Of a DNA stretch of 64,000 nucleotides, positions 34,395 to 58,116 are shown piece by piece. The stretch is from a virus, in the IMG/VR virus record IMGVR_UViG_3300022752_005671, positions 64,001 through 128,000 of that record, one strand, 5' to 3'. A program made the position numbers and the translations under genes. The notes beneath the pieces are model-generated. The model searched no databases, had not been told where the DNA came from, and was given only the letters and a program-made list of their open reading frames with translations. The stretch's first letter is position 1; each line of letters begins with the position of its first letter.

Positions 34395-36341
34395 GTGTCA
34401 AAAGAAAATCAAAATTTATTTCAACGATTGAGCCGTTTGTTTAAAAGCGGTCCTGTAGTAAAGCGTAAAGTAAAATCGATTGATACTACAATTGCAGTCG
34501 CTGACAAGACCAAATCTTCTGGTGCTCTTCTTTTCCAAAGATCTACATCTCCAACTTACTCTGTAATAACTGCAAATTCTTATAATCTCTCAGAACGTTT
34601 GATGAGATATCAAGATTTCCAAGAAATGGAATATACTGCAGAAATTGCAGCTGCTATGGACATCTATGCTGACGAAACAGTTGCACAAGATGATAAAGGA
34701 AGGGTTCTTCACGTTTATTCTGATGATGAAAAAATTAGAGATATTTTAGAAGATCTTTTCTACAACGTTTTGAATGTAGAATTTAATCTTCGATCTTGGG
34801 CTCGTAACCTTGTCAAATATGGCGACTTTTTTCTCTATAATGATGTTTCACCAACGCAAGGCGTAATTCATGCTTTCCCAATCCCAGTAAATGAAATTGA
34901 ACGTGAAGAGAATTATGATAGAGAAGATCCATTTGCGGTTCGTTATCGATGGTCAACTCTTGGGAACAGAACATTAGAAAATTGGGAAGTTACGCATTTC
35001 CGTCTTTTAGGAAATGATATGTTTCTTCCTTATGGATCATCGCTAATCGAACCAGCTAGAAGGATTTGGAGACAGTTAATTCTTCTAGAGGATGCAATGT
35101 TGGTTTATCGTGTTGTTCGCGCTCCTGAACGCCGTGTGTTTTATATTGACGTTGCTAATATTCCTCCTGAAAACGTTCCAATGTATGTTGAGGAACAACG
35201 AAAGAATCTTCGTACAAATCAAGTAATTGACAGAAATACTGGAAGAGTAGATTTAAGGTATTCTCCTCTAAGCGTTGAAGATGATTACTTCATTCCAGTC
35301 AGAGGCGGAGAATCAGGTACAAGAATTGATACTTTGGCCGGCGGCCAAAATGCTGCAACCGTTGAAGACGTTCAATATATGCAAAAGAAATTATTTGCAG
35401 CATTAAAAGTTCCAAGAGCTTATCTAGGATATGATGAGATGTTGTCTTCTAAGGCAACATTAGCTCAAGAAGATATTCGCTTTTCTCGTACAATAAGCGT
35501 TATTCAAAAAACTCTTATTTCTGAATTAAATAAATTAGCAATCATTCATTTATATTCTCATGGATATGACGGCGAAGAATTGCAAAATTTTACATTAAGG
35601 CTATCTAATCCTTCTACTATAGCGCAGCAACAAAAGCTTGAATTATGGAAATCTAAATTTGAAATTGGAGGATCTCTTCCAGAAGGAATGGGAAGTAAAA
35701 GATTCGTTCAAAAAGAAATTTGGGGTCTTAATGACGATCAAATTGATGAAATTAACGATCAAAGACTTAAAGAGAAAGTTACAGATCTTGGAATTGAAGG
35801 AGCGACCGCAGAAGCTGGAGAAGCTAGTCCCGAACAACCAGCAGCAGAAGAACCAGCTGCCGGAGAAGAAGCAGGAGGCGAAGAAGCCTCGGCCGGCGAA
35901 GATTTATTTGCAAATGATGACGTTAGCGATGATGCTTCTTCAAACTCAAAGCTTTTGATGTCAAGCAATATTGATGATGACGTTTTGCCAAGCATTGATG
36001 AAAAAGATTCAGCCCCAGTAAAGCCGAATGCTTATTCAAAAAAATACGCTTATAATCGTAAACGCCGCAGAGTGCAAAAGCACATACCAGATTTTAATAC
36101 TATGTTAAGTTCAAAAAACTCTTCATTATCTGATCCTCATGACAAAAACTGGATGAAGAGTTTGGTTAGCAATCCATTTGGAGAATCGGTAGATTTATCT
36201 AATGTGAGAAGTTCGCCTCCTCCTCTTTCTCCAAACATGATATCAACTTTAAAAAAGATGTCTAATACTTTCGGTATCGTTTCTAAAAAAGAAGGATTAT
36301 TAACTGAATCTGAAGAAATAGATATTGAAGTTAAAGAATGA
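34395..36341 (+). CDS. gp20: portal protein (T4 gp20-like) with an acidic C-terminal extension
   Basis: EDAMLVYRVVRAPERRVFYIDVANIP, EDDYFIPVRG, IDTLAGGQN, LFAALKVP. Confidence 0.93.
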   Translation: MSKENQNLFQRLSRLFKSGPVVKRKVKSIDTTIAVADKTKSSGALLFQRSTSPTYSVITANSYNLSERLMRYQDFQEMEYTAEIAAAMDIYADETVAQDDKGRVLHVYSDDEKIRDILEDLFYNVLNVEFNLRSWARNLVKYGDFFLYNDVSPTQGVIHAFPIPVNEIEREENYDREDPFAVRYRWSTLGNRTLENWEVTHFRLLGNDMFLPYGSSLIEPARRIWRQLILLEDAMLVYRVVRAPERRVFYIDVANIPPENVPMYVEEQRKNLRTNQVIDRNTGRVDLRYSPLSVEDDYFIPVRGGESGTRIDTLAGGQNAATVEDVQYMQKKLFAALKVPRAYLGYDEMLSSKATLAQEDIRFSRTISVIQKTLISELNKLAIIHLYSHGYDGEELQNFTLRLSNPSTIAQQQKLELWKSKFEIGGSLPEGMGSKRFVQKEIWGLNDDQIDEINDQRLKEKVTDLGIEGATAEAGEASPEQPAAEEPAAGEEAGGEEASAGEDLFANDDVSDDASSNSKLLMSSNIDDDVLPSIDEKDSAPVKPNAYSKKYAYNRKRRRVQKHIPDFNTMLSSKNSSLSDPHDKNWMKSLVSNPFGESVDLSNVRSSPPPLSPNMISTLKKMSNTFGIVSKKEGLLTESEEIDIEVKE

Positions 36342-36416: not shown

Positions 36417-37274
36417 ATGTCGGTTCATAATAAAAAAAGAAATACTGGTTTGTTATACGAATTTTTAATAAAGACGATATCACAAGCCTTAGTAGATGAT
36501 GATAAGAAAAAATCTTCAAAAGCATTGAAGATCGTAAAAACGTATTTCAAACCAGGAACAGAACTTTATAAAGAGTTTCGTTTAATAAACTCAATTATAA
36601 AGACAACAGTTAGTTCAGAAGCTGTAGCTGCTTCGATATTAAATGAAGCAAAGTTAGCTGCAAGATCTCATGATTTAAATGAACTTGATAAAGAAAAATC
36701 TTTATTAATTAGATCAATAAATCATCAATTAAATGATGATCATTTTTATGACCAACATATCTCAGAATATAAAACTTTTGCTACTGTTCAAAACTTACTA
36801 AACGATTGGAGATCAAAATCCCCTGATCTTTCTCGGATGGCATCATATGAAGATCAAATCGTTAATTGGCTTGTGACCGCGAAACAAGAGAAAAGTGATC
36901 ACATTGTTGTTGAAGGATCGCAAGGTTCAAATAGACTATTAATGAAGATCATGATGAAGAAGCTTGGAGAGAAATATGATAATTCTCTTACAAATGAGCA
37001 AAAATCTTTAATAAAAGCATACGCGTTTTCATCAGCAAATGATGATAATAAAACAATTTTATTAAAAATTAAAGAAATTAAAGAAAAGCTTATTAATTCA
37101 ATAAATTCTTATCTTTTAGAAAACTCTAAGAGCGAAAAATATCTATCAGATAAGTTAAATGAAGTGAAATCTAATTTGCTTGTTGATCATGAACAAGTAA
37201 ATGACTCTATTGTTGCTGAATATATGTTATACATCAAATTAATTGATGAATTGTCAGGAGGAGAAAATGTCTGA
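36417..37274 (+). CDS. head-module hypothetical protein
   Basis: 285-aa ORF between portal and prohead protease. Confidence 0.65.
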   Translation: MSVHNKKRNTGLLYEFLIKTISQALVDDDKKKSSKALKIVKTYFKPGTELYKEFRLINSIIKTTVSSEAVAASILNEAKLAARSHDLNELDKEKSLLIRSINHQLNDDHFYDQHISEYKTFATVQNLLNDWRSKSPDLSRMASYEDQIVNWLVTAKQEKSDHIVVEGSQGSNRLLMKIMMKKLGEKYDNSLTNEQKSLIKAYAFSSANDDNKTILLKIKEIKEKLINSINSYLLENSKSEKYLSDKLNEVKSNLLVDHEQVNDSIVAEYMLYIKLIDELSGGENV

Positions 37275-37878
37275 TTTAAGATTAATTAACTCGTATCAGG
37301 TTTTTGATTATACTCCTGAACAAATTAAAGAAGCAAAAGAAGAAAATTCTGGTAAAGTCGTGATGAAAGGTGTTTTACAAAAATCAGATACCTTGAATCA
37401 AAATGGCAGAATTTATCCTCGTAACGTTTTGGAACGTGAAGTTCGTAACTATCAAAAGTTTATCATCGAAAATCGTGCATTAGGTGAATTAGACCACCCA
37501 GATTCTTCTGTTGTTAATCTTAAGAATGTTTCTCACATTGTAAGAGAAGCATATCTTGATGGTGATGTAGTTTATGGATCTGTAGAAATACTGGACACAC
37601 CTTCTGGAAAAATATTACAATCTCTCGTTGAGTCAGGAGTGAAACTTGGAATTTCTTCTAGAGGAGTAGGAACGACAAAAAAGCAAGGCGACTATCAAAT
37701 AGTTCAAGACGATTTTCAATTAATTTGTTGGGACTTCGTTTCTGAACCTTCTACACCAGGAGCATTCATGATGGCAGAAGGAAGACAAATTAATCCAGAT
37801 GAATTACAAAGAGTATTCACAAAATCGGATAGAATTGATAGAATACTCAATGATATTCTTACTTCGAAAGGTAAATGA
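37267..37878 (+). CDS. gp21: prohead core protease (T4 gp21-like)
   Basis: NQNGRIYP, ALGELDHP, GISSRG and DFVSEPS; AGGAGGAG RBS supports ATG 37267 rather than 37243. Confidence 0.92.
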   Translation: MSDLRLINSYQVFDYTPEQIKEAKEENSGKVVMKGVLQKSDTLNQNGRIYPRNVLEREVRNYQKFIIENRALGELDHPDSSVVNLKNVSHIVREAYLDGDVVYGSVEILDTPSGKILQSLVESGVKLGISSRGVGTTKKQGDYQIVQDDFQLICWDFVSEPSTPGAFMMAEGRQINPDELQRVFTKSDRIDRILNDILTSKGK

Positions 37879-39620: not shown

Positions 39621-41552
39621 ATGTCAAAAGAACTATACGAAGAAGCTATTGCTGATTTAAAGAAAGTAAAAGAAGTTGCAGAGGATAATGCAAAACGTGC
39701 AATCGTTGAAGCTGTAGCTCCTCGTATAAGAGAACTAATAGAAAAAGAATTATTAGGCGAAGCAGCCGATGAAGGTATGGGTTGCGAATCTGATGAAGAT
39801 GAAGAAAAGCCTGATAAGATTTTGACAGATAAAAAGCCCGCTGATTCTTCTGAAGAATCAAACGAATCTACAGTTTCCATGGAGACAGTCACTAACGAAG
39901 TTGACGAAACTCTAAACGTAGAAGAAGCTGTTGAAAAAGTTGTTTCGACATCTTCTCCGGATGGAATAGATGAGGTAGAACAAAAATTACTCTACATTGA
40001 AAGAATGTTAGGCAAACTTACATCAACATCAACACGTTTGTCTGAATCAAACGCATTTAACCTTAGTTTAATTAATTTAAATGAAATGGTTGAAGCTATA
40101 TACGGATATATTCAAGAAAATGTAGAGGATCCTAATGTCAGATTAGGGTATGGATTAAAATTAAGAAAGTGTTTAACCAAACTTGAAAAACTTCAGGAGA
40201 CAAAAATGAATCGAGATCTTTTAAATGAAGAAGACGTTGCTTTAACAATCACAGGACTCCCAGATGATCTTGATCTTGAGGGTCTTGGAGTTACTCTACA
40301 AAAAGGTGAAGAGGGAGAAGAAGCTCCTGAAGGCGAAGAAGCCGAAGCCCCCGAAGGAGAAGAAGAAGCTCCTGAAGGTGGTGAAGGTGAAGAAGCCTTA
40401 GCCGGTGAAGAAGATATGCTCGGTGGCGAGGACGAAGTCGGCAAGAAAGAAGAATCTCTCAATCTTAGCGATGATATGTTAGTTGAGATTGATGAGAACA
40501 TGCTCCGTCGCGAAATTGCAAAGATGAAAGCGCTTCGTGAAGCTCATGATGAATCACATGATGTTCAAGCTTGGGGTCACGGTGCCGGCGAAGTTTCTGA
40601 TGAATTTGTTGAGGACGACATGGGAGAACCTCTCGAATTAGATCTATCTGAAGCTTTGGCTGAGCTTGATGGTGCAGCATCTCAAGGAACTCCTGCAGAG
40701 CTTGAAGATTATGCAGCAGAAGCTTCTGAAGTTGACGAAATGGAAGAAGTCGACGAAATGTATGAAGTTGATGAAATGGATGATGCGCATGAAGCTAAAG
40801 TTGGTCATGCTCAACTCGAAGTTGACGTTGATGAAGAACTTGAAGAAGTCATGAGCCAAGCAAAAGATTCTGAGGAACATAATACCAAAGGTAAGAATGT
40901 TCAATCAAGACAACCAGAATCAGTTCAAACAGAATCCATTCGTAAAGAAATGGCCAAAGAGCTTAAGCTTCAAGAGGTGCTTCGTAAACGCGCTTCTGAA
41001 TTAAAGAAGCTCTATGAAGCAACAAAGAAAGTTGCAACTAAGTCTTCAACACTTGTTGAGACAAAGAAAGCGGCAGCACATGGTGCAAAAATCAAGACTG
41101 CATACGCTGAAACAGCTGAACTCTACAACGGTTCAGTAACTAGATTTAATAAGCTTTCACGAGCCTTGTCAGAAAGTGCTCGTAAGAACGTTCGCTCAAA
41201 TAGCAACGTCACACCTGCTGCTAGCGCGGGAACAGATACGCTAAGCAAGAAGTTGGCAGAAACGAATCTGCTCAACGCTAAGCTTCTCTTCACAAATAAG
41301 CTCCTTCAAACAGAGTCGCTCACAGCTCGCCAAAAGGCACAAATAATTGAGCAACTTGATGGAGCAGAAACAGTTCGTGAAGCAAAGCTTGTGTACGAGA
41401 GCCTTTCAAAGGCTTTAGTGAAGACTCGTACGACTGTGACCGAAGGTCGCGTTCTAGGATCATCTTCACAAGCTACACGTCCAGCTTCAACCCAAACACT
41501 CAACGAAGGGTTTGAAGCAGAGCGTTGGGCAAAACTCGCCGGAATCAAGTGA
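39621..41552 (+). CDS. prohead core scaffold protein (gp22-like)
   Basis: very acidic and coiled-coil, directly upstream of the capsid gene; NLLNAKLLFTNKL..ETVREAKLVYESL C-terminal block. Confidence 0.75.
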   Translation: MSKELYEEAIADLKKVKEVAEDNAKRAIVEAVAPRIRELIEKELLGEAADEGMGCESDEDEEKPDKILTDKKPADSSEESNESTVSMETVTNEVDETLNVEEAVEKVVSTSSPDGIDEVEQKLLYIERMLGKLTSTSTRLSESNAFNLSLINLNEMVEAIYGYIQENVEDPNVRLGYGLKLRKCLTKLEKLQETKMNRDLLNEEDVALTITGLPDDLDLEGLGVTLQKGEEGEEAPEGEEAEAPEGEEEAPEGGEGEEALAGEEDMLGGEDEVGKKEESLNLSDDMLVEIDENMLRREIAKMKALREAHDESHDVQAWGHGAGEVSDEFVEDDMGEPLELDLSEALAELDGAASQGTPAELEDYAAEASEVDEMEEVDEMYEVDEMDDAHEAKVGHAQLEVDVDEELEEVMSQAKDSEEHNTKGKNVQSRQPESVQTESIRKEMAKELKLQEVLRKRASELKKLYEATKKVATKSSTLVETKKAAAHGAKIKTAYAETAELYNGSVTRFNKLSRALSESARKNVRSNSNVTPAASAGTDTLSKKLAETNLLNAKLLFTNKLLQTESLTARQKAQIIEQLDGAETVREAKLVYESLSKALVKTRTTVTEGRVLGSSSQATRPASTQTLNEGFEAERWAKLAGIK

Positions 41553-41604: not shown

Positions 41605-43476
41605 ATGAAGACTTTTACAATCGATCAATTAGCGCAAGGCATCCGTGAGAAGCACGTTGGAGCCGAGCGTGCACGTTTAACAGAAAAGTGGAGCCGCACA
41701 GGTCTCCTCCGCGGTCTCGATGGACAACGCCGTGAAATGATGGCACAACTCCTCGAGAACCAAGCTGCTCAAGTCCTCAAGGAGAGCTCATCTCTCTCAA
41801 CAGGCGGAGCTAACGTTACAGGATCTGGCCAAATTCAAGGTTTCAGCAACATTGCATTTCCAATCGTTCGTCGCGTGTTCGGTGGCCTCGTTGCCAACGA
41901 GCTCGTGTCAATCCAACCAATGAGCCTCCCCTCAGGACTCATCTTCTATTTGGATTACACATACGGCACAAACGTTGGTCAACCCGGCGTTGCTGGTTCA
42001 ACATACACCAAGGGACAATCCATTTATAACAACCCCACCGGCCGCGGAGTCCAATCTGGATCTCTTGCAACTGGTGGTATGTATGATCTTGTTGGTTCTG
42101 GTTACTCAAAAGTCACTGGTTCAGCAACTCTTACATTCGATGGAACAATCGTAACAGGTTCTTTCGGTGGAGTAAACGGTGATACATTCTCATCAGGACT
42201 CGTCCTCACAGTAGGAACACAGTTCAGCGGCAGCAACGCTCGCCTCATGGACTTCGATTCTCAAGTTGAGACAGCACTCACAAATAATGACCTCGACACA
42301 ATGTTCGCATTCGTTCCCACATCACAACTCTCTGGTGCAGACCTCCTCGCAGTCGACCAAGTGGCCCTTTTCCAAGGACCAGGCGGCGCAACTGCATGGG
42401 GCGAGACATACCAAGGTGGAACAGGAGTCCTCAACCTTCGCCGCCTTAACAAGCGTGGAGATTGGAACGGTTCAACTTCAACATTCACACCAAACCCACT
42501 CGGCGGATCTCATATCCTCATGGTGATTAAGTGTGCAAACGCTGGTGCATTTAGCACATCTACAGCTGGCAAGGTCTCCTTCGTCAAGTCAGACTCAGTT
42601 TCAGCTCTCGGCGCTGATGCTGCTGGAACAGGTGCAACACTCACAGTTCCATCATTCGAATCTGATTTCGGAACAACACCATCTCCAGCAATCCCAGAGA
42701 TTGATATCAAGATTGAGTCTCTTGCAATCACTGCAACAACCCGCAAGCTACGCGCTCGCTGGTCACCAGAACTTGCACAAGACCTCAATGCATATCACTC
42801 AATGGATGCAGAGGTTGAGCTCACTTCAATCCTCTCTGAGCAAATCGCTCTCGAGATTGATCGTGAAATTCTCAACGACCTCGTTACACAAGCCAACGGC
42901 GCTAACTACTACTGGTCACGCGCTCCAGGCAAGTTCGTCAACAAGACAACAGGCGCTGCAGTAACCCTTGCCTCATCCCTCTCAATCGGACCAGCCTTCA
43001 CCGGTACAGTTCGTGAGTGGTACGAGACACTTGTCGAGACAATCATCGACGTTGCAAACACCATCCACCGCAAGACACTCCGCGGAAGCGCAAACTTCCT
43101 CGTCTGCGGACCAGAAGTTGCAACAGTCCTTGAATCCTCAGTTCTCTACAAGCCCAAGTTCTCCATCGACGGTGAGGGACAAGTTGCTTCTCCATTCACA
43201 ATCGGTGCAGAGGCAATCGGCTCACTCAGCAACCGCTTCACAGTTTACAAGGATCCTTACTTCGTTCGTAACAAGATCCTCGTCGGCTACAAGGGTGGTT
43301 CCTACCTCGAGACCGGCTACGTCTACGCACCATACGTTCCACTCATTGTGACACCAACAATCTTCGCACCAGAGGATTTCACACCACGTAAGGGCGTGAT
43401 GACTCGCTACGGTAAGAAGATGGTTCGTTCCGACTTCTTCGGGACGGTCACATGCTTGGACATGAACATCATCTGA
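41605..43476 (+). CDS. gp23: major capsid protein (T4 gp23-like)
   Basis: FPIVRRVF..VSIQPMSLPSGLIFYLDY; RKLRARWSPELAQDL..EAELTSILSEQIALEIDREI-like block; FYAPYVPL-like GYVYAPYVPL; TRYG. Confidence 0.96.
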   Translation: MKTFTIDQLAQGIREKHVGAERARLTEKWSRTGLLRGLDGQRREMMAQLLENQAAQVLKESSSLSTGGANVTGSGQIQGFSNIAFPIVRRVFGGLVANELVSIQPMSLPSGLIFYLDYTYGTNVGQPGVAGSTYTKGQSIYNNPTGRGVQSGSLATGGMYDLVGSGYSKVTGSATLTFDGTIVTGSFGGVNGDTFSSGLVLTVGTQFSGSNARLMDFDSQVETALTNNDLDTMFAFVPTSQLSGADLLAVDQVALFQGPGGATAWGETYQGGTGVLNLRRLNKRGDWNGSTSTFTPNPLGGSHILMVIKCANAGAFSTSTAGKVSFVKSDSVSALGADAAGTGATLTVPSFESDFGTTPSPAIPEIDIKIESLAITATTRKLRARWSPELAQDLNAYHSMDAEVELTSILSEQIALEIDREILNDLVTQANGANYYWSRAPGKFVNKTTGAAVTLASSLSIGPAFTGTVREWYETLVETIIDVANTIHRKTLRGSANFLVCGPEVATVLESSVLYKPKFSIDGEGQVASPFTIGAEAIGSLSNRFTVYKDPYFVRNKILVGYKGGSYLETGYVYAPYVPLIVTPTIFAPEDFTPRKGVMTRYGKKMVRSDFFGTVTCLDMNII

Positions 43477-44308: not shown

Positions 44309-44632
44309 ATGAACCGGCGCCGCGCAGGACAACCAAAATTAATTAAAAAACATTGTGAAATTTGTTATTTTGATAAACCTGAAGCAATAAATTTTCATCA
44401 TATCATTCCTAAACGTGACCCACGATGTACAAATGATAATCATAACATAGCGATCGTTTGCCATTCATGTCATGACTTAATTCATGCAGGAAAAATCATA
44501 ATAATAGGCGTGTATTCGTCAACAGGAGGTAGGAAGCTAATGTGGTTCCGCCAAGGAGAAGATCCACCGTTAGAGGAAGAATTCTGGATGGTCAAAGAAA
44601 ATCCTTTGGTAATATTGAGGGGGAAACATTAA
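44309..44632 (+). CDS. small HNH endonuclease
   Basis: CEIC..HHIIP..NIAIVCHSCHDLIH (Zn-HNH pattern). Confidence 0.85.
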   Translation: MNRRRAGQPKLIKKHCEICYFDKPEAINFHHIIPKRDPRCTNDNHNIAIVCHSCHDLIHAGKIIIIGVYSSTGGRKLMWFRQGEDPPLEEEFWMVKENPLVILRGKH

Positions 44633-44673
44633 TCTTTTTTTATAAATTTTTTAATGGGAAATATAATTGTTTT

Positions 44674-46143
44674 ATGACCATTAAAAAAGATCTATTTAAA
44701 AAAGGAATCATCACTGCTTCTGCGTTGATTGCTTGTTTGTATGGATGTGAACGTCCGAATCCGTATAAGTTATCGGGTGATACATCTGCAGTTTTTGAAG
44801 ATTGTCCAACTCCGAAATTTCCTGATGAAAACGTTTCTTCGCAAGTTTCATCCACCTCAACCAGCGGAGAGATGACGACAGGAAAGACAGTTGGACCATC
44901 AGTTACAGCAACAGTTGGGACAGGATATCAAGATGAGCAACAACAAGAGCAGACAGAATTAGATAAGAGAGAGTTTGATTATTCTGAAGCATTGAGAACA
45001 GCTAGCATCTTAATTGTTGGAGATGCTCCTACATTGTCTGAGATATATGAACTCGGCGATTTGCCTCTTGAGCAGCAAAAAGCAAAATATGAAGAGTTGG
45101 TTGACAAAAAGCTATCTGATTCTCGATTTGCAGATACACTTATAGAATTCTTTAAGTATACTTTTAAGATGGGCGGAGCAGCTACAATTTCAGGTGAACC
45201 TACTAGAGATACAGCTCCAACGTTTGCAGCTAGGATTGTTTATGAAGAGAAAGATTGGAGAAACATTCTTACTCAAGTTTCTAATACGTGTCCGACATAT
45301 AATGCCACGACAAAGATTTTTACCGATGGAAATTGCATGAATTTACCAGCAGGGATGAATCATTCTGGAATTTTGACAGATCCAGGCGCACAAAGTCTTT
45401 ATTACGGTAATTTGTCATTTCGTCGTAATCGATTTTATCATGAAACTTTTTTATGCAGATCAGGAAATGAGCAATCAGGTGGAGAGCCGACTGACAATCC
45501 ACCGACAGATGCTCCTTGTTCTGGAGGAACATCCATCCCAGGATATCAAAATAAATGGCCTGTTAATGAGATTGCAGGTGTGTGTAATGGTGGCCGCGTA
45601 GATTTTCATGCGTATAATAATTCAAATGTTTGTGCAAATTGTCATGCAACATGGAATCATAGAGCACCATTGTTTAGTCAGTTCGATTCCAAGGGAGTAT
45701 TTCAATCTTTAACACCTGCAGGAGAATATTCGGTATTCGTTCCTGTTGAAGGTTCTCCTAGAGCAAAGTTATCTGATTGGTTATGCATTGGATCTTCATG
45801 CCCTAATGGAGGAAATAATACAACTGCTTGGAAGAAGTCCATGAAAGTTAATGGAGTAGATACATCTGCAAATGCTAACACGATTAATGAGTTAGGACAA
45901 GTTATGTCTCAAGATGATGAAGTCGTAGAATGTGCGGTGAAAAGAATGTGGAACTATGCAATGGGCCGTGCAGATATAACTGAAATAGGAGGACGTTCTT
46001 GGGTCAATTTGCCTGACAGAAATGATCCAAACCCAGAATTAGTTACCATGTCAAAATTGGTCTTGCAATTTAAGAATAACGGATATAATCTAAAGAAAGT
46101 TTTTAGATCCATTCTTGTATCAGAGGATTTTACGAGGTTTTAA
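44674..46143 (+). CDS. lipoprotein with DUF1549/DUF1588/DUF1585-like segments and a CxxCH motif
   Basis: from ATG 44674: basic N-region, hydrophobic core and LYGC lipobox; ALRTASILIVGDAPT..YEELVDKKLSDSRF; SGILTDPG; CANCH; CAVKRMWNYAMGR..FKNNGYNLKKVFRSIL.SEDF. Confidence 0.75.
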   Translation: MTIKKDLFKKGIITASALIACLYGCERPNPYKLSGDTSAVFEDCPTPKFPDENVSSQVSSTSTSGEMTTGKTVGPSVTATVGTGYQDEQQQEQTELDKREFDYSEALRTASILIVGDAPTLSEIYELGDLPLEQQKAKYEELVDKKLSDSRFADTLIEFFKYTFKMGGAATISGEPTRDTAPTFAARIVYEEKDWRNILTQVSNTCPTYNATTKIFTDGNCMNLPAGMNHSGILTDPGAQSLYYGNLSFRRNRFYHETFLCRSGNEQSGGEPTDNPPTDAPCSGGTSIPGYQNKWPVNEIAGVCNGGRVDFHAYNNSNVCANCHATWNHRAPLFSQFDSKGVFQSLTPAGEYSVFVPVEGSPRAKLSDWLCIGSSCPNGGNNTTAWKKSMKVNGVDTSANANTINELGQVMSQDDEVVECAVKRMWNYAMGRADITEIGGRSWVNLPDRNDPNPELVTMSKLVLQFKNNGYNLKKVFRSILVSEDFTRF

Positions 46144-46144
46144 T

Positions 46145-47152
46145 ATGAAGATTATAAAAAATGGATTATTGTTTAGCGTTGTCCTAGTCGGATCTTTTGC
46201 ATGTGGGTCTAATTCTCCTAACATAGGAGAAGATGAATGTCCAGATCAAAATGAAGTTATTTCATCAACGATAGCAGTACAAGCTTCAACAACTGTCGTA
46301 ACAGCCGGAGCTGGAGGGTCTGTAAATGTTTCTGCGTCATCTTCTGTCACTTCGACTTCGACCGGAGGAGAACCTCAACAAAAATTTGACGTTCCTTCTT
46401 CAGATGAAATTATGTCTCGTTTACATAGCTGTCATAAGCTGTCATATCAACAATTAGGAAATTTTTTAAGAAATAGAGGTGCCTTAATTCCTCCTGGAAA
46501 TGTTTCAGATGTCCGTACAACACAGGTTTCAATTCTTGGTGTAACACAAACATTGGGGTCTATATTTGGTGGCAGCGGAACTTCTTGCGAAATGGCAATA
46601 ACAACAGCCAATGGAACGAATGATCCAGTTTGTCCTGCAGGAGAGGTTTGTTTTTGCAATCAAGACGATAAGATGAATCAAGTAAATCGTAGTTGTTTAG
46701 ATGTTGGAAATAACTCCCCCGACGCAGCTGATGGTTATTGCGTATCAAAGCCTGCAACGGCTGGATATCTTTATTTTTCTGGAAAAGACGCGTTAGGAGT
46801 TCCAAAACTTGATTCTAGATTAGGAGAGAAGGAAGAACACTCAACTGCTTCTGCAATGAAATTAATGGACATCTTCATACAAGCTGCTCCTCAAATTATT
46901 GCAAACATAGGTGATCAAACAAAAGCTCCTGCGTGTACTCTAAACGGAAAAAATAAACAAATGTTTGCAGCAGATGGTAGTTGTGTGGAGGAATCTGTCA
47001 GTTGCTTAATTGGAACGCCTGCTACTGAAGATCACATGCTATTATGTAACTTATTGGTTAGTAAGGCAGATAAAAGTAATTTATCTGATGTTATGAAGAA
47101 GCGAAATATTGCCGTAGCTGTTTTGTTATCTGCAGCGCATTCATGTCAATGA
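46145..47152 (+). CDS. Cys-rich secreted lipoprotein
   Basis: ATG 46145 is 1 nt after the upstream stop; MKIIKNGLLFSVVLVGSFAC lipobox; Ser/Thr linker; many Cys residues. Confidence 0.72.
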   Translation: MKIIKNGLLFSVVLVGSFACGSNSPNIGEDECPDQNEVISSTIAVQASTTVVTAGAGGSVNVSASSSVTSTSTGGEPQQKFDVPSSDEIMSRLHSCHKLSYQQLGNFLRNRGALIPPGNVSDVRTTQVSILGVTQTLGSIFGGSGTSCEMAITTANGTNDPVCPAGEVCFCNQDDKMNQVNRSCLDVGNNSPDAADGYCVSKPATAGYLYFSGKDALGVPKLDSRLGEKEEHSTASAMKLMDIFIQAAPQIIANIGDQTKAPACTLNGKNKQMFAADGSCVEESVSCLIGTPATEDHMLLCNLLVSKADKSNLSDVMKKRNIAVAVLLSAAHSCQ

Positions 47153-47164
47153 AGGGAAAAGAAA

Positions 47165-48766
47165 ATGGGAAATTGGAAATTAAAGCAACTTAGAGATGAA
47201 CGTCGTAGAACATTTTTAAAGATGTGTACCGTTGCGGCAGCTGCAATAGGTATTGAAAGATCTAGACTTTTAAACTTCCTTGCTGATGAAGGAGGTTATG
47301 GATTGGCAGAAGCAGCTGGTTCAACATATGGGCGATCATTGCTTGTTCCATCTCCAAATGGCGTGTATGCTTGGTTTCAAGAACTTTGGCCAGTTGCAGA
47401 CGTCGGATTGAAAGCATGCCAAAATGCAAATGTTCCCGGATTGTCTTCAAATTTTGGAGGAACGTCTTCATACCTCTACACTTCCCAATATGGATATAAC
47501 CCAGCTAACGGATATCGAGGAACCTATGCTTGGGGTAAAGGTAATCCAATGCCTACATTACCGATGGGGGTAAAAGGATGGAACGGCGGAGATAGATCTT
47601 TCTTTTATAGTCCTCATGCTCCATGGTTTGATCACAACGCTGGAACTCCAAAATATCCTGTGACTGCGTTTATGTCAGGTAAGGATGAAACCCACACAGA
47701 ATTTCCAATTTCTCATATGTCTTTGTCTGGAAATTCATCATTACAAGCAGCGTTAGCTTCTCTTGGTGCAGCTGGGTCATCTGCGATAGTACCTGTTCTT
47801 GGTATAGATCCAGTCAAATATGGTAGAGCTCCTGGTGCCCCAGAAGTTGCCACGGTCCCATCTTCTGCAGGAATGATTGATCTATTTAATTCTGCAGCAA
47901 GCCAATTCGCTTTGGCAACTAAAGTTGACCAAGAGTTGTTTGAAACTTACTATAAGGCATTAGTTGGTCTTAGAAAGTCTTCAGAGAGATCATCATGGGC
48001 TCCGCAAATGTCAATCACGAAGAATGCTGCTAGAATCATTGGTCTTAATTTCGCATCGCAACTTACTCCTACGAGTCAAGATCTTACAGATTTCGGTATC
48101 CAAGACATGATTGATAGCATTAATGCATCATCTACGTATATGACTTCAACTCAAAGAAATGGTATTGAAGAATTTGGTAGAACACTAATCGTTGTGGCAA
48201 AGGCATTCTCATTAGGTCTATCCAAAACTGCCATCGTAGCCTTATCCCCAGGTCCAACCTCCGATACGACCTTCACAGACCCCCACGTTACATTTGATAA
48301 TATGACCTTAATGAACCAGGGTCGAAATACCACAAAACATTTAGGGAAGGTTCTGGATGGCTTCTACAACTATCTATCTCAACAGGTAGATCCTGAAAGT
48401 CCAACTGAAAAGCTGGATAAGAGTACTGTGTTCGTTGCATATGGCGATACGCCGCACACCCCGCTTGTCGGAAATACCTGGCCTGATGCAACTCCTGATG
48501 CTTGTAATTGGATGTACGTCATGGACCCAAGAGGGCACATCAAGAACGGATGGTTCGGTCACGTGTATGCCAATAAAGTTGGAGGTAAAAATGCAGTTGG
48601 ATTTAATCCTCTAACCGGTGTTGATGACATGACGAAAACTTCTGAACAAGTTTCTTCTTTTGGATCGACAGCGACAGTGTTTGCAGTTGCAAATGGAGAT
48701 TCAAATAAGACTTCAGAATATGGAAATTCTCCAAACGTAGTTTCTGCTTTGATTAATCAAAAGTAA
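47165..48766 (+). CDS. twin-arginine (Tat) exported DUF1501/DUF1552-like protein
   Basis: RRRTFLK Tat motif, hydrophobic stretch and AEAA cleavage site; FTDPH and LDKSTVFVAYGDTPHTP resemble the DUF1501 DTH and LDDTLVVVMSEFGRTP motifs. Confidence 0.72.
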   Translation: MGNWKLKQLRDERRRTFLKMCTVAAAAIGIERSRLLNFLADEGGYGLAEAAGSTYGRSLLVPSPNGVYAWFQELWPVADVGLKACQNANVPGLSSNFGGTSSYLYTSQYGYNPANGYRGTYAWGKGNPMPTLPMGVKGWNGGDRSFFYSPHAPWFDHNAGTPKYPVTAFMSGKDETHTEFPISHMSLSGNSSLQAALASLGAAGSSAIVPVLGIDPVKYGRAPGAPEVATVPSSAGMIDLFNSAASQFALATKVDQELFETYYKALVGLRKSSERSSWAPQMSITKNAARIIGLNFASQLTPTSQDLTDFGIQDMIDSINASSTYMTSTQRNGIEEFGRTLIVVAKAFSLGLSKTAIVALSPGPTSDTTFTDPHVTFDNMTLMNQGRNTTKHLGKVLDGFYNYLSQQVDPESPTEKLDKSTVFVAYGDTPHTPLVGNTWPDATPDACNWMYVMDPRGHIKNGWFGHVYANKVGGKNAVGFNPLTGVDDMTKTSEQVSSFGSTATVFAVANGDSNKTSEYGNSPNVVSALINQK

Positions 48767-50491: not shown

Positions 50492-51280
50492 ATGGTTCAA
50501 ATAATTCGATTAGGATCAACAGGACTAGATGTTGAAAAGTGGCAAATATTCTTAAGAGGATTGTCACAAAATAGTTCTATCATCGTAAATGGAAATTTTG
50601 ATTCATTTACTGAAAGAGAAACAAAGGCATTTCAATCTAAGAAAGGGTTAGTTCCTGATGGAATTGTTGGACCCAAAACGTTGGCAATTGCATTACAGTC
50701 AGGATATCCCTTAATGGATGATCCAACGTCAGACATTAATGGTCCAAATTGGCCGCCTCGTCCTGCGATCGGACCATTAAGCGTAGTTGATCGCGAAAAA
50801 CTTTTTGGAAGATTTACGTATATTTCATCGCCGACATTTGCAAATCCAGAAGCCATAACGATTACTGGCAGCTGGATTCAAAACAATATATCTTCAGTAA
50901 AAATTCCTGAGTTAAGCGGAGTTGCTGGTGCACCTTCTTCTTGTAACATTCAAATTCATTCATTTTTATCAAATCAAATGATGAATCTATTTAAAGCTTG
51001 GGATAAAGAAGGATTAAAATATTTGATGATGTCTTGGGGAGGATCTTGGAGCCCCCGTTTCATTAGAGGATCAAGAACAACATTATCAAACCATGCTTGG
51101 GCGACTGCGTTTGATATTAACGTTCAATGGAACCAGCTTGGTGCACAACCTGCATTACGAGGAGAAACTGGCTCAGTTAGAGAACTTGTAGAAATTGCAT
51201 ACGATCATGGGTTTTATTGGGGCGGTTGGTTTCCAAAAAGACCTGACGGAATGCATTTTGAAGCCTACAAAATCATTTAA
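50492..51280 (+). CDS. endolysin: peptidoglycan-binding domain plus M15-family Zn peptidase
   Basis: IRLGSTGLDVEKWQ..FQSKKGLVPDGIVGPKT (PG_binding_1); SNHAWATAFDIN (SxHxxxxAxD) and DGMHFE. Confidence 0.88.
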   Translation: MVQIIRLGSTGLDVEKWQIFLRGLSQNSSIIVNGNFDSFTERETKAFQSKKGLVPDGIVGPKTLAIALQSGYPLMDDPTSDINGPNWPPRPAIGPLSVVDREKLFGRFTYISSPTFANPEAITITGSWIQNNISSVKIPELSGVAGAPSSCNIQIHSFLSNQMMNLFKAWDKEGLKYLMMSWGGSWSPRFIRGSRTTLSNHAWATAFDINVQWNQLGAQPALRGETGSVRELVEIAYDHGFYWGGWFPKRPDGMHFEAYKII

Positions 51281-52429: not shown

Positions 52430-54628
52430 TCAGCCGCGCACGATGACGGTGATGACGTCTTCAGCAACGAGTGCAGACACGATCGAAGAATCGAAAGTGA
52501 CTGATGTTGTTGAAATTGAGGTGAGGTCGCGGCTTGGAGCCATGAGAACACCGTTGAGGTAGACGTCAACCAACTTGTGGTTAGCTGAAGCAAGAGGTCC
52601 TTGGCCTACGAAGCTAAGGACGTTTCCTGCAAAGTCAGCTGCACCGTATGTTGACTTGGAGAGGTTTCCACCTTGGTTAGCTGCATCAAGATCGCTGCGA
52701 AGTTCATTGAGTGCGCCAACGATTGTTGTTGCATCGAATGCTGCATCGAATGTGGTGTATTCTGCTGCTGACATGAGACCCATGGAGTTACCATTTGCGG
52801 AGAAGGAGAGGTCATCAGCTGCTGAAATTGACATTTCTGCAACTGAAGAGAGTGATACTCCTGCTGGTGATGCAGAGAGGGAACCACTGAGGCTTCCTTC
52901 CATTCCACCTAACTTGACAGAGCTCATCCATGCTGGAACAAGTGCTGCACCATCGAGATCAGCTGGAGAATCTCCTGCTGGGTTGTGGGCAACTTGTGCG
53001 AAGATGAGTTCACCTGCGCCACCATCTTGTCCAACGATGAGGTCAGATCCAGCACCAGCTCCCTTGCTGAGGACGATACCGGAGTCAGAAGAACCGGCAG
53101 ATCCTGTTGCAAGGTAGATGAATGCATCCTTAACCTTCATGTTTTCAGTTTCAATGTAGGTGAATGCGCCCTTTACGAGGAGGTCGCCGTCAACTTGTGC
53201 ATTGCCTGAAACGCGAAGGCCGCCGTTGATGGAAAGATCAGATCCATCGAAGGTGAGCTTTTGTTCATCCTTCATTGAACCGTCTGAGTCAACGATGTAA
53301 AGACGTGTTGCTGTATCGCCATCAATGCTGATCTTGTTTGCTGTTAAGTCTGCATTGACATCGAGAGCTGCTCCGCTTACAGACACTCCGTTTTGGAATG
53401 TTGCTGCGCCTGCGACATCGAGGGTTGAGTCGAAATCGACAGCACCATCAACGTCGAGTGTTCCTGTTGTTGCAACGTTTCCGGAGCCATCTGCTACCGT
53501 GAATGCACCGTCAACATCAATTCCGCCATCGAGTGATGCGAGACCTGCGACGTCGAGTGTTCCTGTTGTTGCAACGTTTCCAGAGCCGTCTGCTACTGTG
53601 AATGCGCCATCAACATCGATTCCACCGTCAAGTGATGCAAGTCCTGCAACGTCAAGGGTTGATGCGAAGTCAGCTGCTCCATCAACGTCAAGGGTTCCTG
53701 ATGTTGCAACGTTTCCAGAGCCATCTGCTACTGTAAATGCACCGTCGACATCGATTCCGCCGTCAAGCGATGCAAGTCCTGCAACGTCAAGGGTTCCTGA
53801 TGTTGCAACGTTTCCAGAACCATCTGCTACAGTGAATGCACCGTCAACGTCGATTCCGCCGTCAAGTGATGCAAGTCCTGCAACGTCGAGGGTTGATGCG
53901 AAGTCAGCTGCTCCTGCGACAGAAAGAGATCCTGAGATTCCTGCTGCGTGTGCGAGGTAGAGAGAATCTGCATCAACAACTCCTGCAAATGAAGCATCGC
54001 CGAGAACTGCAAGATCTTCAGAAACCGTGAGGTCTCCTGTGATTGCTGCTCCGCCTACGATTGAAGCTCCACCTGCAGAAATTTCGAGACCAGCAGAACC
54101 GCTGATTGCTGAATCGAATGTTGCAATTCCGCCAACATCGAGTGCTCCTGCGATATCTGCAAATCCAGAAACGTCGAGGTTTCCAGTGATGTCAAGTTTA
54201 GATCCATCATAAACAAGGTTTGATGAATCAGCAATTTCACCGGATGCTCCAACGATGTAGAGGTTACCTGGGCTGTTGTCTCCATCAATCTTGATTTCGT
54301 TTGCGGAAACTCCGCCGTTGAAATCAGCAGCTCCTGCAACTTGGAGTGTGCTGTCGAGTGTAGCAGCTCCTGTCACATCAACTGTGCCTTGGAAATCTGC
54401 GTTTGCTCCTGACATATGAACAGCTGCGTAGATGTCTGAGAGGTCTTGTGAACCATCAAGAGCATCGTACCAGTTTGACTTACCAACGATCTTGTTGATT
54501 TGTGAGCGAAGTGCATCAAGGTCACCCTTTAATGTAGACTTGCTTGCAAGGCCAGAGCCTGCTGCAAGTGAATCGTCAAAAGAAAGTGAACCACTGATTT
54601 GTGATTGTTGTATCTTTGAAATAGCCAT
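52430..54628 (-). CDS. repeat-rich beta-helical fibre/decoration protein
   Basis: 732 aa, Asp/Gly/Ala/Ser-rich with 6-residue periodicity; four 33-aa repeats; C-terminal VYLNGVL domain; codon bias like the capsid gene. Confidence 0.75.
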   Translation of the reverse strand: MAISKIQQSQISGSLSFDDSLAAGSGLASKSTLKGDLDALRSQINKIVGKSNWYDALDGSQDLSDIYAAVHMSGANADFQGTVDVTGAATLDSTLQVAGAADFNGGVSANEIKIDGDNSPGNLYIVGASGEIADSSNLVYDGSKLDITGNLDVSGFADIAGALDVGGIATFDSAISGSAGLEISAGGASIVGGAAITGDLTVSEDLAVLGDASFAGVVDADSLYLAHAAGISGSLSVAGAADFASTLDVAGLASLDGGIDVDGAFTVADGSGNVATSGTLDVAGLASLDGGIDVDGAFTVADGSGNVATSGTLDVDGAADFASTLDVAGLASLDGGIDVDGAFTVADGSGNVATTGTLDVAGLASLDGGIDVDGAFTVADGSGNVATTGTLDVDGAVDFDSTLDVAGAATFQNGVSVSGAALDVNADLTANKISIDGDTATRLYIVDSDGSMKDEQKLTFDGSDLSINGGLRVSGNAQVDGDLLVKGAFTYIETENMKVKDAFIYLATGSAGSSDSGIVLSKGAGAGSDLIVGQDGGAGELIFAQVAHNPAGDSPADLDGAALVPAWMSSVKLGGMEGSLSGSLSASPAGVSLSSVAEMSISAADDLSFSANGNSMGLMSAAEYTTFDAAFDATTIVGALNELRSDLDAANQGGNLSKSTYGAADFAGNVLSFVGQGPLASANHKLVDVYLNGVLMAPSRDLTSISTTSVTFDSSIVSALVAEDVITVIVRG
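53420..53923 (-). repeat. intragenic tandem repeats: 12+33+33+12+33+33+12 codons
   Basis: 99-bp units at 53887-53789, 53788-53690, 53653-53555 and 53554-53456, separated by 36-bp units. Confidence 0.92.
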
Positions 54629-56110: not shown

Positions 56111-56782
56111 ATGGCACGTCTTTTTATCACTAAAAGAGAGATAAACTTTATATCTGACATCACAAAAGAGATAGTGAAAGATGTAGTCGGCCAAAAAATT
56201 TACTATTATCCTGTCTCAGAAACAAAAACTAAATCTCATGAAGTGTATGATGAAGCACTTCAAAAAGTGTTTGACAATCCTGTCATTGTTGATGTTTTAG
56301 TAAACAGCGAGTTTCAAACTGAGACAAAAATTAACAAATTTGGTATAGATTCTCAATTTACTTTAGAAGTATACATTCAACACAGAGATATGATAGAAAA
56401 AGGAATCAATCCAGCCATTGGAGATTATTTTTCATTCGGAGCGATTTTTTACGAAATTACAGAATATAAGTACATGAGAACGATCTATGGACAAGCTGAA
56501 AACATAGATGGAGTATCGTTGATCGGTACTAGAGTTCGTGAAAGTCAATTTAAGGCTCTCACGAATGGTCCTACAGATATCAAATACACAGATCAAGATG
56601 CGGTTCAAGAAACGTTCGTTCAACAAAGAGGGTATGCAACTGACTCTGACGGAAATGAGACCGGCGACGTAAGAGATCTTGTTAAGAATGGAGTTCTTGA
56701 TGAACCGTTGACTGGCCGTAAAGAAGTTTCGCCTAAAGGAGACTCGACGGGGGTTGGAAGTTCATTCTACGATGAGGATTGA
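56111..56782 (+). CDS. gp14: neck protein (T4 gp14-like)
   Basis: GQKIYYYP..YDE..KFGID..IGDYF; synteny with gp13 and gp15. Confidence 0.7.
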   Translation: MARLFITKREINFISDITKEIVKDVVGQKIYYYPVSETKTKSHEVYDEALQKVFDNPVIVDVLVNSEFQTETKINKFGIDSQFTLEVYIQHRDMIEKGINPAIGDYFSFGAIFYEITEYKYMRTIYGQAENIDGVSLIGTRVRESQFKALTNGPTDIKYTDQDAVQETFVQQRGYATDSDGNETGDVRDLVKNGVLDEPLTGRKEVSPKGDSTGVGSSFYDED

Positions 56783-56784
56783 TT

Positions 56785-58116
56785 ATGCCTACTAGATTTA
56801 ATTCAAAAAGTCAAAAGAGGTTTGGAGTCGCAGGGATTAATTTAGATAATCACCAAGGCACTCCTGATCTAACAATACCATCAGTAGGTATAGAAGATGT
56901 TGACGTTTCATTATTTAAATTGTTTGATAATGAAATTAAATTGCAGGTAGGAGGAGATAATGGCGATTTTAAAAAGGTGCCAATCATCTTTGCAACAGGA
57001 GAAAAATGGGCGTTATTAAAGAAAAAGCGCGCATTAAGAGATAAAAATAATTCTTTAATCCTTCCTTTATTGACAATTTCAAGAACTTCAATTTCTCAAG
57101 ATTTATCCTCGGACATTGCTGGCAGAGGAATTAATCAACAAACTGGAGAAATAGTGATACGCAGAAGGTTAGACAAATCTGATCGTGGATATCAAAATTT
57201 AATCAATAGATTTCTTTTAAAAAATCAAAAAAATGTTGCAACCAATCCCGATTTAGATCATGTTGAAGGTCAACTATTGACAGATAGAAAAATAGGAGAA
57301 GATTCTACAGATCCAGTCATCGAAAGCGGAGCATGGCTAGCAGATATAAAAAAGAATAATATTTACGAAACCATTGTCGTCCCTTCTCCTCAATTCTATA
57401 ATGTCACATATGACGTTACGATGTGGACTCAATATACGCAACACATGAATCAATTGTTAGAACAATTGGTTTCCTCATTTTTACCTCAAGCAAATTCATG
57501 GAAGTTAGAAACTCCTAAGGGGTACTGGTTTATAGCAACAGTAAGCAATAATTCCTACGATCCAGAAAATAATTTAGATGAATTAGGACAAGAAGAAAGA
57601 GTCATTAAGTATAAATTTACTGTTAATGTAAAAGCTTACATTTTTGCATCCAAATTCCCAGGAAATGGAGTCCCAATAAAACGTTTTGTGTCATCTCCAA
57701 CCATCAAGTTTGATGTAGAACCATCAGGAGGTTCGGGGTTCTCATCTGCTGAAAGCCAAAATCCATTTTTAGGATCTGACGATCCAACGCTACCATTAAG
57801 CGATTCTAAAAATAAACATCTTGGCCAGAGATTAACAGGAGGAACAAGATTATACGATCCTTCCGCGACGGACTCAGAAGATCCAGCCTTGAGGTCAAGA
57901 GCTGCAAAACAATATAATCCCGTTTATAAAAAAATTATTTCTAGTGATCTTTCTGGTAAAGAAACCGTTTCGTATGTAAGAGCATACCCTGTGAATCAAG
58001 CATCAGGAGAGTCTGTGATTAAAATAACCCCTCAGCCAGCTTCTAATCAAGCACCACTTACTGCAGAATCTTTGTTAGGCGGAATAACGTACCATATTAT
58101 TCAAGATGATGAATAA
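56785..58116 (+). CDS. gp15: tail sheath stabiliser/terminator (T4 gp15-like)
   Basis: KVPIIFATGEKW..LPLLTISR..PSP...NVTYDVTMWT; synteny with neck and sheath genes. Confidence 0.7.
   Translation: MPTRFNSKSQKRFGVAGINLDNHQGTPDLTIPSVGIEDVDVSLFKLFDNEIKLQVGGDNGDFKKVPIIFATGEKWALLKKKRALRDKNNSLILPLLTISRTSISQDLSSDIAGRGINQQTGEIVIRRRLDKSDRGYQNLINRFLLKNQKNVATNPDLDHVEGQLLTDRKIGEDSTDPVIESGAWLADIKKNNIYETIVVPSPQFYNVTYDVTMWTQYTQHMNQLLEQLVSSFLPQANSWKLETPKGYWFIATVSNNSYDPENNLDELGQEERVIKYKFTVNVKAYIFASKFPGNGVPIKRFVSSPTIKFDVEPSGGSGFSSAESQNPFLGSDDPTLPLSDSKNKHLGQRLTGGTRLYDPSATDSEDPALRSRAAKQYNPVYKKIISSDLSGKETVSYVRAYPVNQASGESVIKITPQPASNQAPLTAESLLGGITYHIIQDDE

Follow-up and report, generated by a model that had tools for sequence, protein, structure and literature searches.

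How does a T4-like phage come to carry what looks like a bacterial cell-envelope operon just after its capsid gene, and what might it gain by keeping it? The question is raised by positions 44674-48766 of a 64,000-nucleotide stretch of viral DNA (the window: bases 64001-128000 of the linear, 187 kb IMG/VR record IMGVR_UViG_3300022752_005671), where three genes follow one another closely on the + strand. The first, g1 (44674-46143), encodes a 489-residue lipoprotein with a DUF1549-like helical N-terminal domain, a Cys-rich middle that includes a CxxCH motif, and a C-terminal DUF1585; the second, g2 (46145-47152), encodes a 335-residue Cys-rich lipoprotein; and the third, g3 (47165-48766), encodes a 533-residue protein with a signal for twin-arginine translocation (Tat) and an alkaline-phosphatase-superfamily fold, which we presume to be the catalytic subunit. 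An earlier note, made from the letters of the DNA alone, had proposed that the phage captured and kept an intact envelope system that depends on host machinery, and the nesting of the phage copies among bacterial ones, their intactness, the purifying selection on them and their targeting signals all bear this out. Our favored reading, to which we give a probability of roughly 0.6, is that the trio is a host-derived auxiliary envelope module, a Polyangiaceae operon that is kept by selection and sustains a host activity during infection.

The trio is found in the same slot of at least 34 other phage contigs, assembled independently from many samples. Searching IMG/VR with the g3 family returned 33 contigs at 80-97% identity, and a 273 kb contig from the European Nucleotide Archive (ENA) also holds g1-g2-g3; over these contigs together, identity to the trio ranges from 61 to 97%. 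In every locus long enough for judgement, the three genes stand in this order between the major capsid protein (MCP) gene gp23 and the endolysin/gp13 genes. Their codon usage is also that of a phage: the GC content at third codon positions (GC3) is 0.22-0.30 for the trio and 0.18-0.27 for the phage's other genes, vs 0.85-0.93 for the bacterial copies. The closest named homologues are proteins from bacterial metagenome-assembled genomes (MAGs), as would be expected if the block were an assembly chimera or host contamination, one of the possibilities that the earlier note had raised against itself. However, the shared slot and the phage-like composition refute that explanation, and we consider its likelihood practically nil.

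The copies are also in good repair. None of 152 trio genes contains an internal stop, and the copies are full length and keep their lipoboxes, CxxCH and Tat motif. By the Nei-Gojobori method, the median dN/dS over pairs with unsaturated dS is 0.07 for g1, 0.17 for g2 and 0.04 for g3; across all pairs, synonymous sites are saturated (median pS about 0.78), with pN at 0.12-0.24. Rather than the degenerate copies under neutral evolution for which the earlier note had allowed, we thus find a trio that is under strong purifying selection and has remained functional through a long diversification of its phages. A tblastn search of INPHARED gave no match for g1 or g3, and neither PHROGs nor PADLOC gave one for g1, g2 or g3; the idea that the trio is a defence system was weighed and rejected.

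Where the trio came from can be read from its bacterial relatives. The nearest non-phage homologues, 59-77% identical, lie on contigs of lake Polyangiaceae MAGs with a GC content of 0.63-0.74, and the g1-g2-g3 order is repeated in 20 Polyangiaceae/Polyangia MAG loci. There the trio often stands beside clpB and glmS, other neighbors being a histidine kinase, nuo genes and GH35, with no phage genes on the trio contigs; the position beside clpB recurs in three distinct contigs, one contig carries a tandem trio, and one MAG has three copies. The family is narrowly distributed. Among 1.84 billion representatives, searched exhaustively with HMMER, g3 has only 211 relatives, and members of its family are present in 55 of 151 sampled genomes of the GTDB family Polyangiaceae, at 1-5 matches per genome, but in no more than 10 of 301 genomes sampled across the phylum.

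In a maximum-likelihood tree of g3, 28 phage sequences form one clade (support of 89 in the Shimodaira-Hasegawa-like approximate likelihood ratio test, SH-aLRT; 97 for a reduced set with 17 phage sequences). That clade falls within one of lake Polyangiaceae copies (99% support), which is itself nested among other Polyangiaceae. From this placement among the bacterial homologues we infer a single old transfer into the ancestor of this phage group, with a lineage of lake Polyangiaceae as donor, and because the trio appears to come from that lineage, lake Polyangiaceae are also the probable hosts of the group. Metagenome 3300020578 (Lake Tanganyika) yielded both a trio-bearing MAG contig (L004) and several of the phage contigs, L008 and L017 among them, and three trio-bearing Polyangiaceae genomes encode both TatC and Cytochrom_C_asm.

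The same kind of operon seems to have entered phages more than once. When IMG/VR was searched with the second major bacterial g3 clade, three further contigs (L072-L074) were found. The 200 kb contig L074, whose MCP is 80% identical to the window's, carries a second version of the trio (type B, also in L072 and L073) right after gp23 at L074:6066-9371, with products of 388, 241 and 459 residues. These are only 32% (g1), about 40% (g2) and 34% (g3) identical to the proteins of the window, yet they have the lipoboxes, the CANCH, the AHSCE C-terminus and the RR motif. In the g3 tree the type B trios fall in the other bacterial clade, with 100% support, and an approximately unbiased (AU) test rejects a single clade of all phage copies (delta lnL 177, p = 0.00026). 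The type B version was therefore captured separately, and the trio has been acquired at least twice.

The content of the slot after gp23 varies even among close relatives. In four relatives with 75-81% MCP identity (L081, L082, L098 and L128), the 10 kb that follow gp23 contain no trio, and in such trio-less relatives the slot holds genes of the HNH or NUMOD3 homing-endonuclease type; in L081 its cargo also includes a DNA ligase, a sigma factor and UvdE. NUMOD3 endonuclease-like open reading frames (ORFs) lie in the slot at L128:11973-13424 and, in the type B phage, at L074:3878-5311. In the window, an HNH homing-endonuclease gene of 107 codons (44309-44632, + strand; 23.6 bits with Pfam HNH vs a cut-off of 21.4) stands directly 5′ of the cassette, and a homologue adjoins the trio in most related phage loci, making it a possible agent of cassette mobility. 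The slot has the look of a hot spot for cargo, in which the endonucleases may mobilize neighboring genes, and its variable, endonuclease-rich nature would explain both the patchy presence of the trio and its replacement by a second version.

These observations could also be taken to mean that the operon is selfish or neutral cargo, which spreads only by virtue of its place beside homing endonucleases at a hot spot of recombination, without benefit to the phage. The adjoining HNH gene, the NUMOD3/HNH genes in the slot of relatives and the patchiness among close relatives would all fit. We nevertheless consider this very improbable: dN/dS values of 0.04-0.17 are maintained over saturated synonymous divergence without a single internal stop, codon use has wholly converged on that of the phage, and capture of the same three-gene unit on two occasions argues for a selected function.

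What, then, do the three proteins look like? For g1, the lipobox and the single CxxCH that the earlier note had pointed out are both present and strongly conserved. The lipobox LYGC (44734-44748, + strand) ends in Cys25, and by a rule of the PROSITE PS51257 type (a signal peptide ending in a lipobox Cys), which we used for all lipoboxes, 32 of 38 g1 copies including the window's satisfy the strict form; the others have a near-lipobox with the Cys kept. A Ser/Thr/Gly linker follows the signal peptide. The CxxCH reads CANCH (residues 320-324, comprising C320, C323 and H324; 45631-45645, + strand) and is a candidate attachment site for haem c. It is kept in 44/44 long g1 copies, and among 31 aligned relatives the invariant residues are Cys25, C320, C323, H324, N328, H329 and R330.

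The DUF1549/DUF1588/DUF1585-like blocks that had been proposed for g1 stand in part. DUF1585 (PSD2, PF07624) is recognized at residues 402-432 with 26.5 bits, above the Pfam gathering cut-off of 25.8. The matches of the window's protein to PSCyt2/DUF1549 (PF07583; 16.1 bits vs 29.8) and to PSCyt3/DUF1588 (PF07627; 14.2 bits vs 27, at residues 309-344, spanning CANCH...FSQFDSKG) fall below their cut-offs; the two are colinear in g1. At E ≤ 0.01, PSCyt2 matches 28 of the 31 relatives (best 5.3e-10), PSD2 24 and PSCyt3 4. An AlphaFold2 (AF2) model of g1 is largely helical, with a predicted local distance difference test (pLDDT) score of 71; residues 1-90, comprising the signal peptide and linker, are predicted to be disordered, and the CxxCH stretch (residues 316-326) has pLDDT below 50. 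No solved structural relative of this model was found in the PDB (best VIA Z 3.7, best Foldseek E 1.7).

The second protein, g2, has the lipobox SFAC, ending in Cys20, and the richness in Cys that had been noted for it (14 in all), followed by a Ser/Thr linker like that of g1. The strict lipobox rule is satisfied by 38 of 51 copies, with a near-lipobox and a conserved Cys in the others. Invariant residues are C20, H94, C96, K98, C264, C280, C287, C301 and C334; beyond the lipidated Cys20 the family thus retains seven Cys, six of them invariant and the seventh, C32, kept in at least 90% of copies, as are H232 and H332. The C-terminal end reads ..AHSC[EQ]. We found no Pfam, PHROG or NCBIfam match for g2, and matches of its relatives to the Pfam entry 'New_glue' were disregarded as low-complexity Ser/Thr/Gly linkers. 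A weak resemblance to models of DUF1553/PSD1 and of DUF1800 is seen for the model of g2 that the ESM Atlas itself provides; we take it as a lead rather than a result. Longer, fused forms of g2 were searched for and none was found, which is weak evidence.

The two lipoproteins have one further feature in common. A Cys in the context ..[DE]CP lies 12-19 residues past the lipidated Cys in both g1 (44746-44808, residues 25-45) and g2 (46202-46243, residues 20-33), and in both proteins, leaving out the lipidated Cys and those of CxxCH, the conserved Cys add up to an odd number. Full-length paralogy of g1 and g2 was considered and rejected, as their profiles share only the N-terminal lipoprotein signal and this following Cys. 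Given the odd counts and the shared Cys, a disulfide bond between g1 and g2 near the membrane anchor is conceivable, and we offer it as speculation.

For g3, the Tat signal is well supported. The motif RRRTFLK (residues 13-19; 47201-47221, + strand) is followed by the hydrophobic stretch MCTVAAAAIGI, and TIGR01409 (TAT_signal) scores 16.7 bits, which equals its cut-off; an NCBIfam scan of the whole trio reported this Tat signal only. Residues R14, R15, F17, L18 and K19 are invariant, and the pattern RR.[F..] is kept in 50/50 copies. Pfam TAT_signal matches 20 of 52 family members, among which no other Pfam domain was found, and a profile search of PDB sequences matched only a NiFe-hydrogenase small subunit, whose Tat signal aligns with the g3 N-terminus. 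Between the hydrophobic stretch and the first strand lies an unusually conserved segment with several invariant residues and an AxA-like end (residues 31-52, LLNFLADEGG...LAEAA; 47255-47320); conceivably the signal peptide is a long one that has a second role, or the segment serves for docking.

The DUF1501/DUF1552-like core that had been proposed for g3 holds at the level of fold but not of sequence families. The hidden Markov models (HMMs) of DUF1501 (PF07394) and DUF1552 (PF07586) gave no match to g3 at E ≤ 10, nor to any of the 52 family members at E ≤ 0.1, and in three Polyangiaceae genomes PF07394 picks out genes other than the g3 of the trio. When g3 was aligned with seven true DUF1501 proteins from Polyangiaceae genomes by hhalign, the match was statistically weak (probability 5.6%, E 0.007); that alignment pairs DPH, GDTP(H/K) and WPD of g3 with DTH, EFGRT and GrDH of DUF1501. 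In contrast, the AF2 model of g3 (pLDDT 82.8, predicted template modelling score 0.83) has as its nearest named ESM Atlas cluster one that is 100% DUF1501, with template modelling (TM) scores of 0.60/0.67 over 407 residues, and it also resembles a DUF1552 cluster (TM 0.51/0.59). Both clusters are mostly from Myxococcota. As judged from these models, g3 is a remote, structure-level relative of DUF1501 that lies outside both Pfam DUF1501 and DUF1552.

Comparison with solved structures places the same model in a larger context. All 47 chains that VIA-align found at Z ≥ 8 belong to the alkaline phosphatase superfamily, headed by a sulfatase (Z 11.8, 253 aligned residues, 4.1 Å), PafA (11.4) and NPPs (11.0-11.2). 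The list also holds iPGM, the transferases EptA/MCR-1, LtaS, BcsG and GacH (Z 8-10), and PbgA/YejM. Foldseek E-values are weak (0.07), with matches all of one kind. Four motifs, T-H-T (176-178), D-P-H (372-374), G-D-T-P-H (427-431) and W-P-D (439-441), are each kept in 48-50 of 50 copies, and these Thr, His and Asp residues suggest a metal center like that of alkaline phosphatases. Where the superfamily normally has an Asp, just after strand 1, g3 shows no conserved residue, and it contains no HXXSHH motif.

How the trio relates to known systems follows from these features. Pairs of PSCyt1/PSCyt2/PSD1 (DUF1549/DUF1553) proteins with Tat-signal DUF1501 proteins have been described in Planctomycetota, Verrucomicrobiota and Lentisphaerota (Kamneva et al. 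2012, PMC3542564; He et al. 2017, PMC5615132), and these modules of PSCyt/PSD with DUF1501 (and DUF1552) are abundant, conserved and apparently important but unexplained in function (PMC3542564, PMC5615132). Like them, the trio encodes a CxxCH protein of the PSCyt/PSD type beside a Tat-exported protein with an alkaline-phosphatase fold and can occur in multiple copies per genome in bacteria. Unlike them, it consists of three genes with the partner split into two lipoproteins, is carried by a virus, belongs to a family confined to Polyangia and phages, and has a g3 that the DUF1501 HMM does not recognize. It shares with the PSCyt3/PSD pairs (DUF1588, DUF1585, DUF1592, DUF1595, DUF1587, next to DUF1552) the DUF1585 of g1, the weak DUF1588 match over CxxCH...FD..G and the resemblance of g3 to the model cluster of DUF1552 (HXXSHH, PF07586); it differs from them in that g3 lacks HXXSHH and the N-terminal half of g1 is DUF1549-like, so that both module types are mixed. 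Within the alkaline phosphatase superfamily (type I sulfatases, PafA, NPP/ENPP, cofactor-independent PGM, EptA/MCR-1, LtaS), the core fold of g3 is shared (Z 11.8-8 over 216-274 residues at 4.0-5.2 Å) and the order of its Asp/His motifs matches that of the metal ligands, whereas sequence identity is only 5-13%, neither the first metal-binding Asp nor a recognizable nucleophile motif is evident, a long variable insert is present (residues 77-165), and the partners are a haem-motif and a Cys-rich lipoprotein.

Phages are known to carry single host genes of this general sort. The pstS, phoA and psbA genes of cyanophages are host-derived auxiliary genes, thought to sustain host functions in infection. 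The trio resembles them in being host-derived, under purifying selection and patchy among related phages, but it is a whole three-subunit exported module that would need host Lgt/Lsp, Tat and probably Ccm. The features by which phage auxiliary genes are recognized are found here: a bona fide phage genome, nesting in a host clade, intact genes and purifying selection. Our literature search found no paper on a phage-borne version of the module, in keeping with the statement of the earlier note that it had not been described as a phage auxiliary system. We conclude that phages carry, in the trio, a new three-gene variant of a type of module that is known from bacteria but unexplained. A BFVD search with g3 gave as its best match A0A6J5M742, at a non-significant E of 0.27; this UniProt/BFVD entry from an uncultured Caudovirales phage bears the automatic name 'DUF1501 domain-containing protein'. 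Apparently, then, true DUF1501 genes also occur on phage contigs, again without a published description.

How might such a module serve the phage? During infection the phage would produce the three proteins and host machinery would route them to the cell envelope: g1 and g2 would be exported by Sec and lipidated by host Lgt/Lsp, the CxxCH of g1 would probably be loaded with haem by the host's cytochrome c maturation system (Ccm or Ccs), and g3 would be exported in folded form through host Tat. The three could then form a periplasm-facing complex at the membrane. Within it, the conserved Asp/His/Thr center of g3 would act on a substrate of ester type (phosphate, sulfate or similar), and the two lipoproteins, one with haem and one rich in Cys, would anchor g3 and possibly couple it to redox chemistry. 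In this way the phage copy would top up or replace a host activity, such as nutrient scavenging or periplasmic redox, that fades in a long infection, much like psbA and pstS in cyanophages. The chemistry of the trio and its benefit to the phage are what we infer; a predicted complex of g1 (residues 96-489) with g3 (residues 28-533) scored 0.00 vs a mark of 0.32, which counts neither for nor against binding. Only tentatively do we suggest the more specific scheme in which the haem and Cys/His-rich lipoproteins couple electron transfer to a non-canonical g3, giving a virus-encoded three-subunit periplasmic enzyme that relies on the Tat, Lol and Ccm pathways of the host and would maintain nutrient release or a redox reaction in the infected cell.

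The envelope-targeting signals on all three products would also fit superinfection exclusion or receptor masking, in which the trio alters or covers the surface of the infected cell and blocks adsorption or injection. T5 Llp and other phage lipoproteins exclude further phages in this manner. The envelope-modifying transferases in the g3 fold list (EptA/MCR-1, LtaS, BcsG and GacH) show that the superfamily can do such work, and like many exclusion genes the cassette is variable cargo. We find this explanation unlikely, however: uninfected Polyangiaceae already hold 1-5 copies that are 59-77% identical, so that no new barrier would be added, g3 lacks a membrane domain of the EptA/LtaS type, and its catalytic-looking motifs are equally conserved in bacterial and phage copies. 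Because Polyangiaceae that carry the module make it themselves, sustaining or boosting a host activity is favored over exclusion, and the creation of a new trait is the less likely role.

Several observations weigh against the view that the trio is a haem-bearing enzyme module kept to sustain a Polyangiaceae host. The chief argument against that host is composition, as the phages have 35-47% GC and Polyangiaceae 63-74%, an uncommonly wide gap of 20-35 points. The trio is also dispensable, since the relatives with 75-81% MCP identity do without the cassette. No cytochrome c fold is seen in the g1 model, so its CxxCH could bind something other than haem. Protein g3 has no HMM match to DUF1501 or DUF1552 and lacks the canonical first metal-binding Asp, which may mean unusual chemistry or a non-catalytic role like that of PbgA/YejM. 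Finally, TatC and Cytochrom_C_asm were not found in the phage record, which would fit reliance on the host's own, but this is weak evidence, given that CheckV puts the completeness of the record at about 52%.

The arrangement of the genes gives some indication of how they are expressed. The tight packing reported in the earlier note is confirmed by the ORF coordinates, with gaps of 1 nt (g1/g2) and 12 nt (g2/g3), and GAGG and AGGGAA stand shortly 5′ of g2 and g3, respectively. So is the location between the capsid module and the endolysin: T4-type gp23 (41605-43476) lies upstream, and an endolysin with M15_4 and PG_binding_1 matches (50492-51280) lies 1.7 kb downstream. From gp23 onward the order is two terminator-like hairpins with a small ORF, the HNH gene and then g1. 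A promoter-like TTTATA-17-TATAAT (44639-44667, + strand; 10/12 matches in a consensus scan, by which such sites are no commoner in the region than chance) ends 6 nt 5′ of the g1 ATG, and no Shine-Dalgarno sequence precedes g1. In most of 16 related loci a TATAAT/TATTAT-like element, with a T-run before it, likewise lies 6-10 nt 5′ of the ATG, whereas within the window a TATAAT-like element so near the start was seen for only 2 of 29 genes checked, most of the others having a Shine-Dalgarno sequence of the GGAG type. The pattern at 44636-44676 and its recurrence suggest that g1, unlike the neighboring structural genes, may be served by a promoter of its own and transcribed with no leader or almost none.

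The position inside the late structural and lysis region, so close to the endolysin, invites the thought that the lipoproteins are lysis or virion accessories, acting as spanin-like or virion-associated proteins. This seems to us scarcely credible. The full-length orthologues form a bacterial chromosomal operon with no phage genes nearby, the proteins are far bigger than spanins and have no PHROG matches, and the promoter-like element of g1 and its missing Shine-Dalgarno sequence set it apart from the adjacent structural genes.

The rest of the window, which has a GC content of 35%, is that of a large T4-type phage. The morphogenesis block upstream comprises the large terminase (32368-34002), portal gp20 (34395-36341) and prohead protease (37243-37878), and the genes downstream of the trio include, besides the endolysin, a gp13-like gene, gp15 (56779-58116) and the tail sheath (58183-61209). 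The MCP is at most 47.5% identical to that of any INPHARED phage record, the nearest being an uncultured 484 kb phage and myoviruses of Flavobacterium and Microcystis; metagenomic relatives of the phage reach 200-298 kb. The MCP gene itself (41605-43476) stands out at 51% GC and a GC3 of 0.48, vs 35% GC for the genome and the GC3 of 0.18-0.27 given above for other genes, which may mean that the most strongly expressed gene has adapted its codons to a host rich in GC. Immediately 5′ of it, an ORF of 643 codons (39621-41552) has no Pfam or PHROG match; it is 57-89% identical in most relatives that retain the region but only 37-41% in L038 and L074.

Three further features of these genomes deserve mention. 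The ORF at 28498-31656 (1052 residues) joins a calcineurin-like phosphoesterase domain (Mre11/gp47-like) and an SMC/SbcC ATPase (Rad50/gp46-like) in one chain, and looks like a fusion of both subunits of the T4 recombination nuclease. On the - strand, opposite to the surrounding virion genes, 52430-54628 encodes a 732-residue protein with a match to a bactofilin-type beta-helix. Intein_splicing and HNH_3 matches in the portal protein of the related 273 kb phage (L002:1-740; 1039 residues) suggest an intein within the portal gene.

The finding touches on a broader puzzle, as the PSCyt/PSD and DUF1501/DUF1552 genes are among the most multiplied modules of unexplained function in aquatic bacteria. 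Two captures by large lake phages, together with strong selection, imply that the module is self-contained and that its activity is worthwhile during infection. The trio adds a class of phage cargo that was absent from the literature searched: an exported complex of several subunits, for which the host must supply three pathways of export and maturation. It also suggests that a widespread group of T4-like phages, 200-300 kb in size, probably infects freshwater Polyangiaceae that are as yet uncultured. If the enzyme-complex reading is true, the trio, being small, single-copy and twice captured, would be the simplest model for the PSCyt/DUF1501 modules that Planctomycetota and Verrucomicrobiota possess by the dozen.

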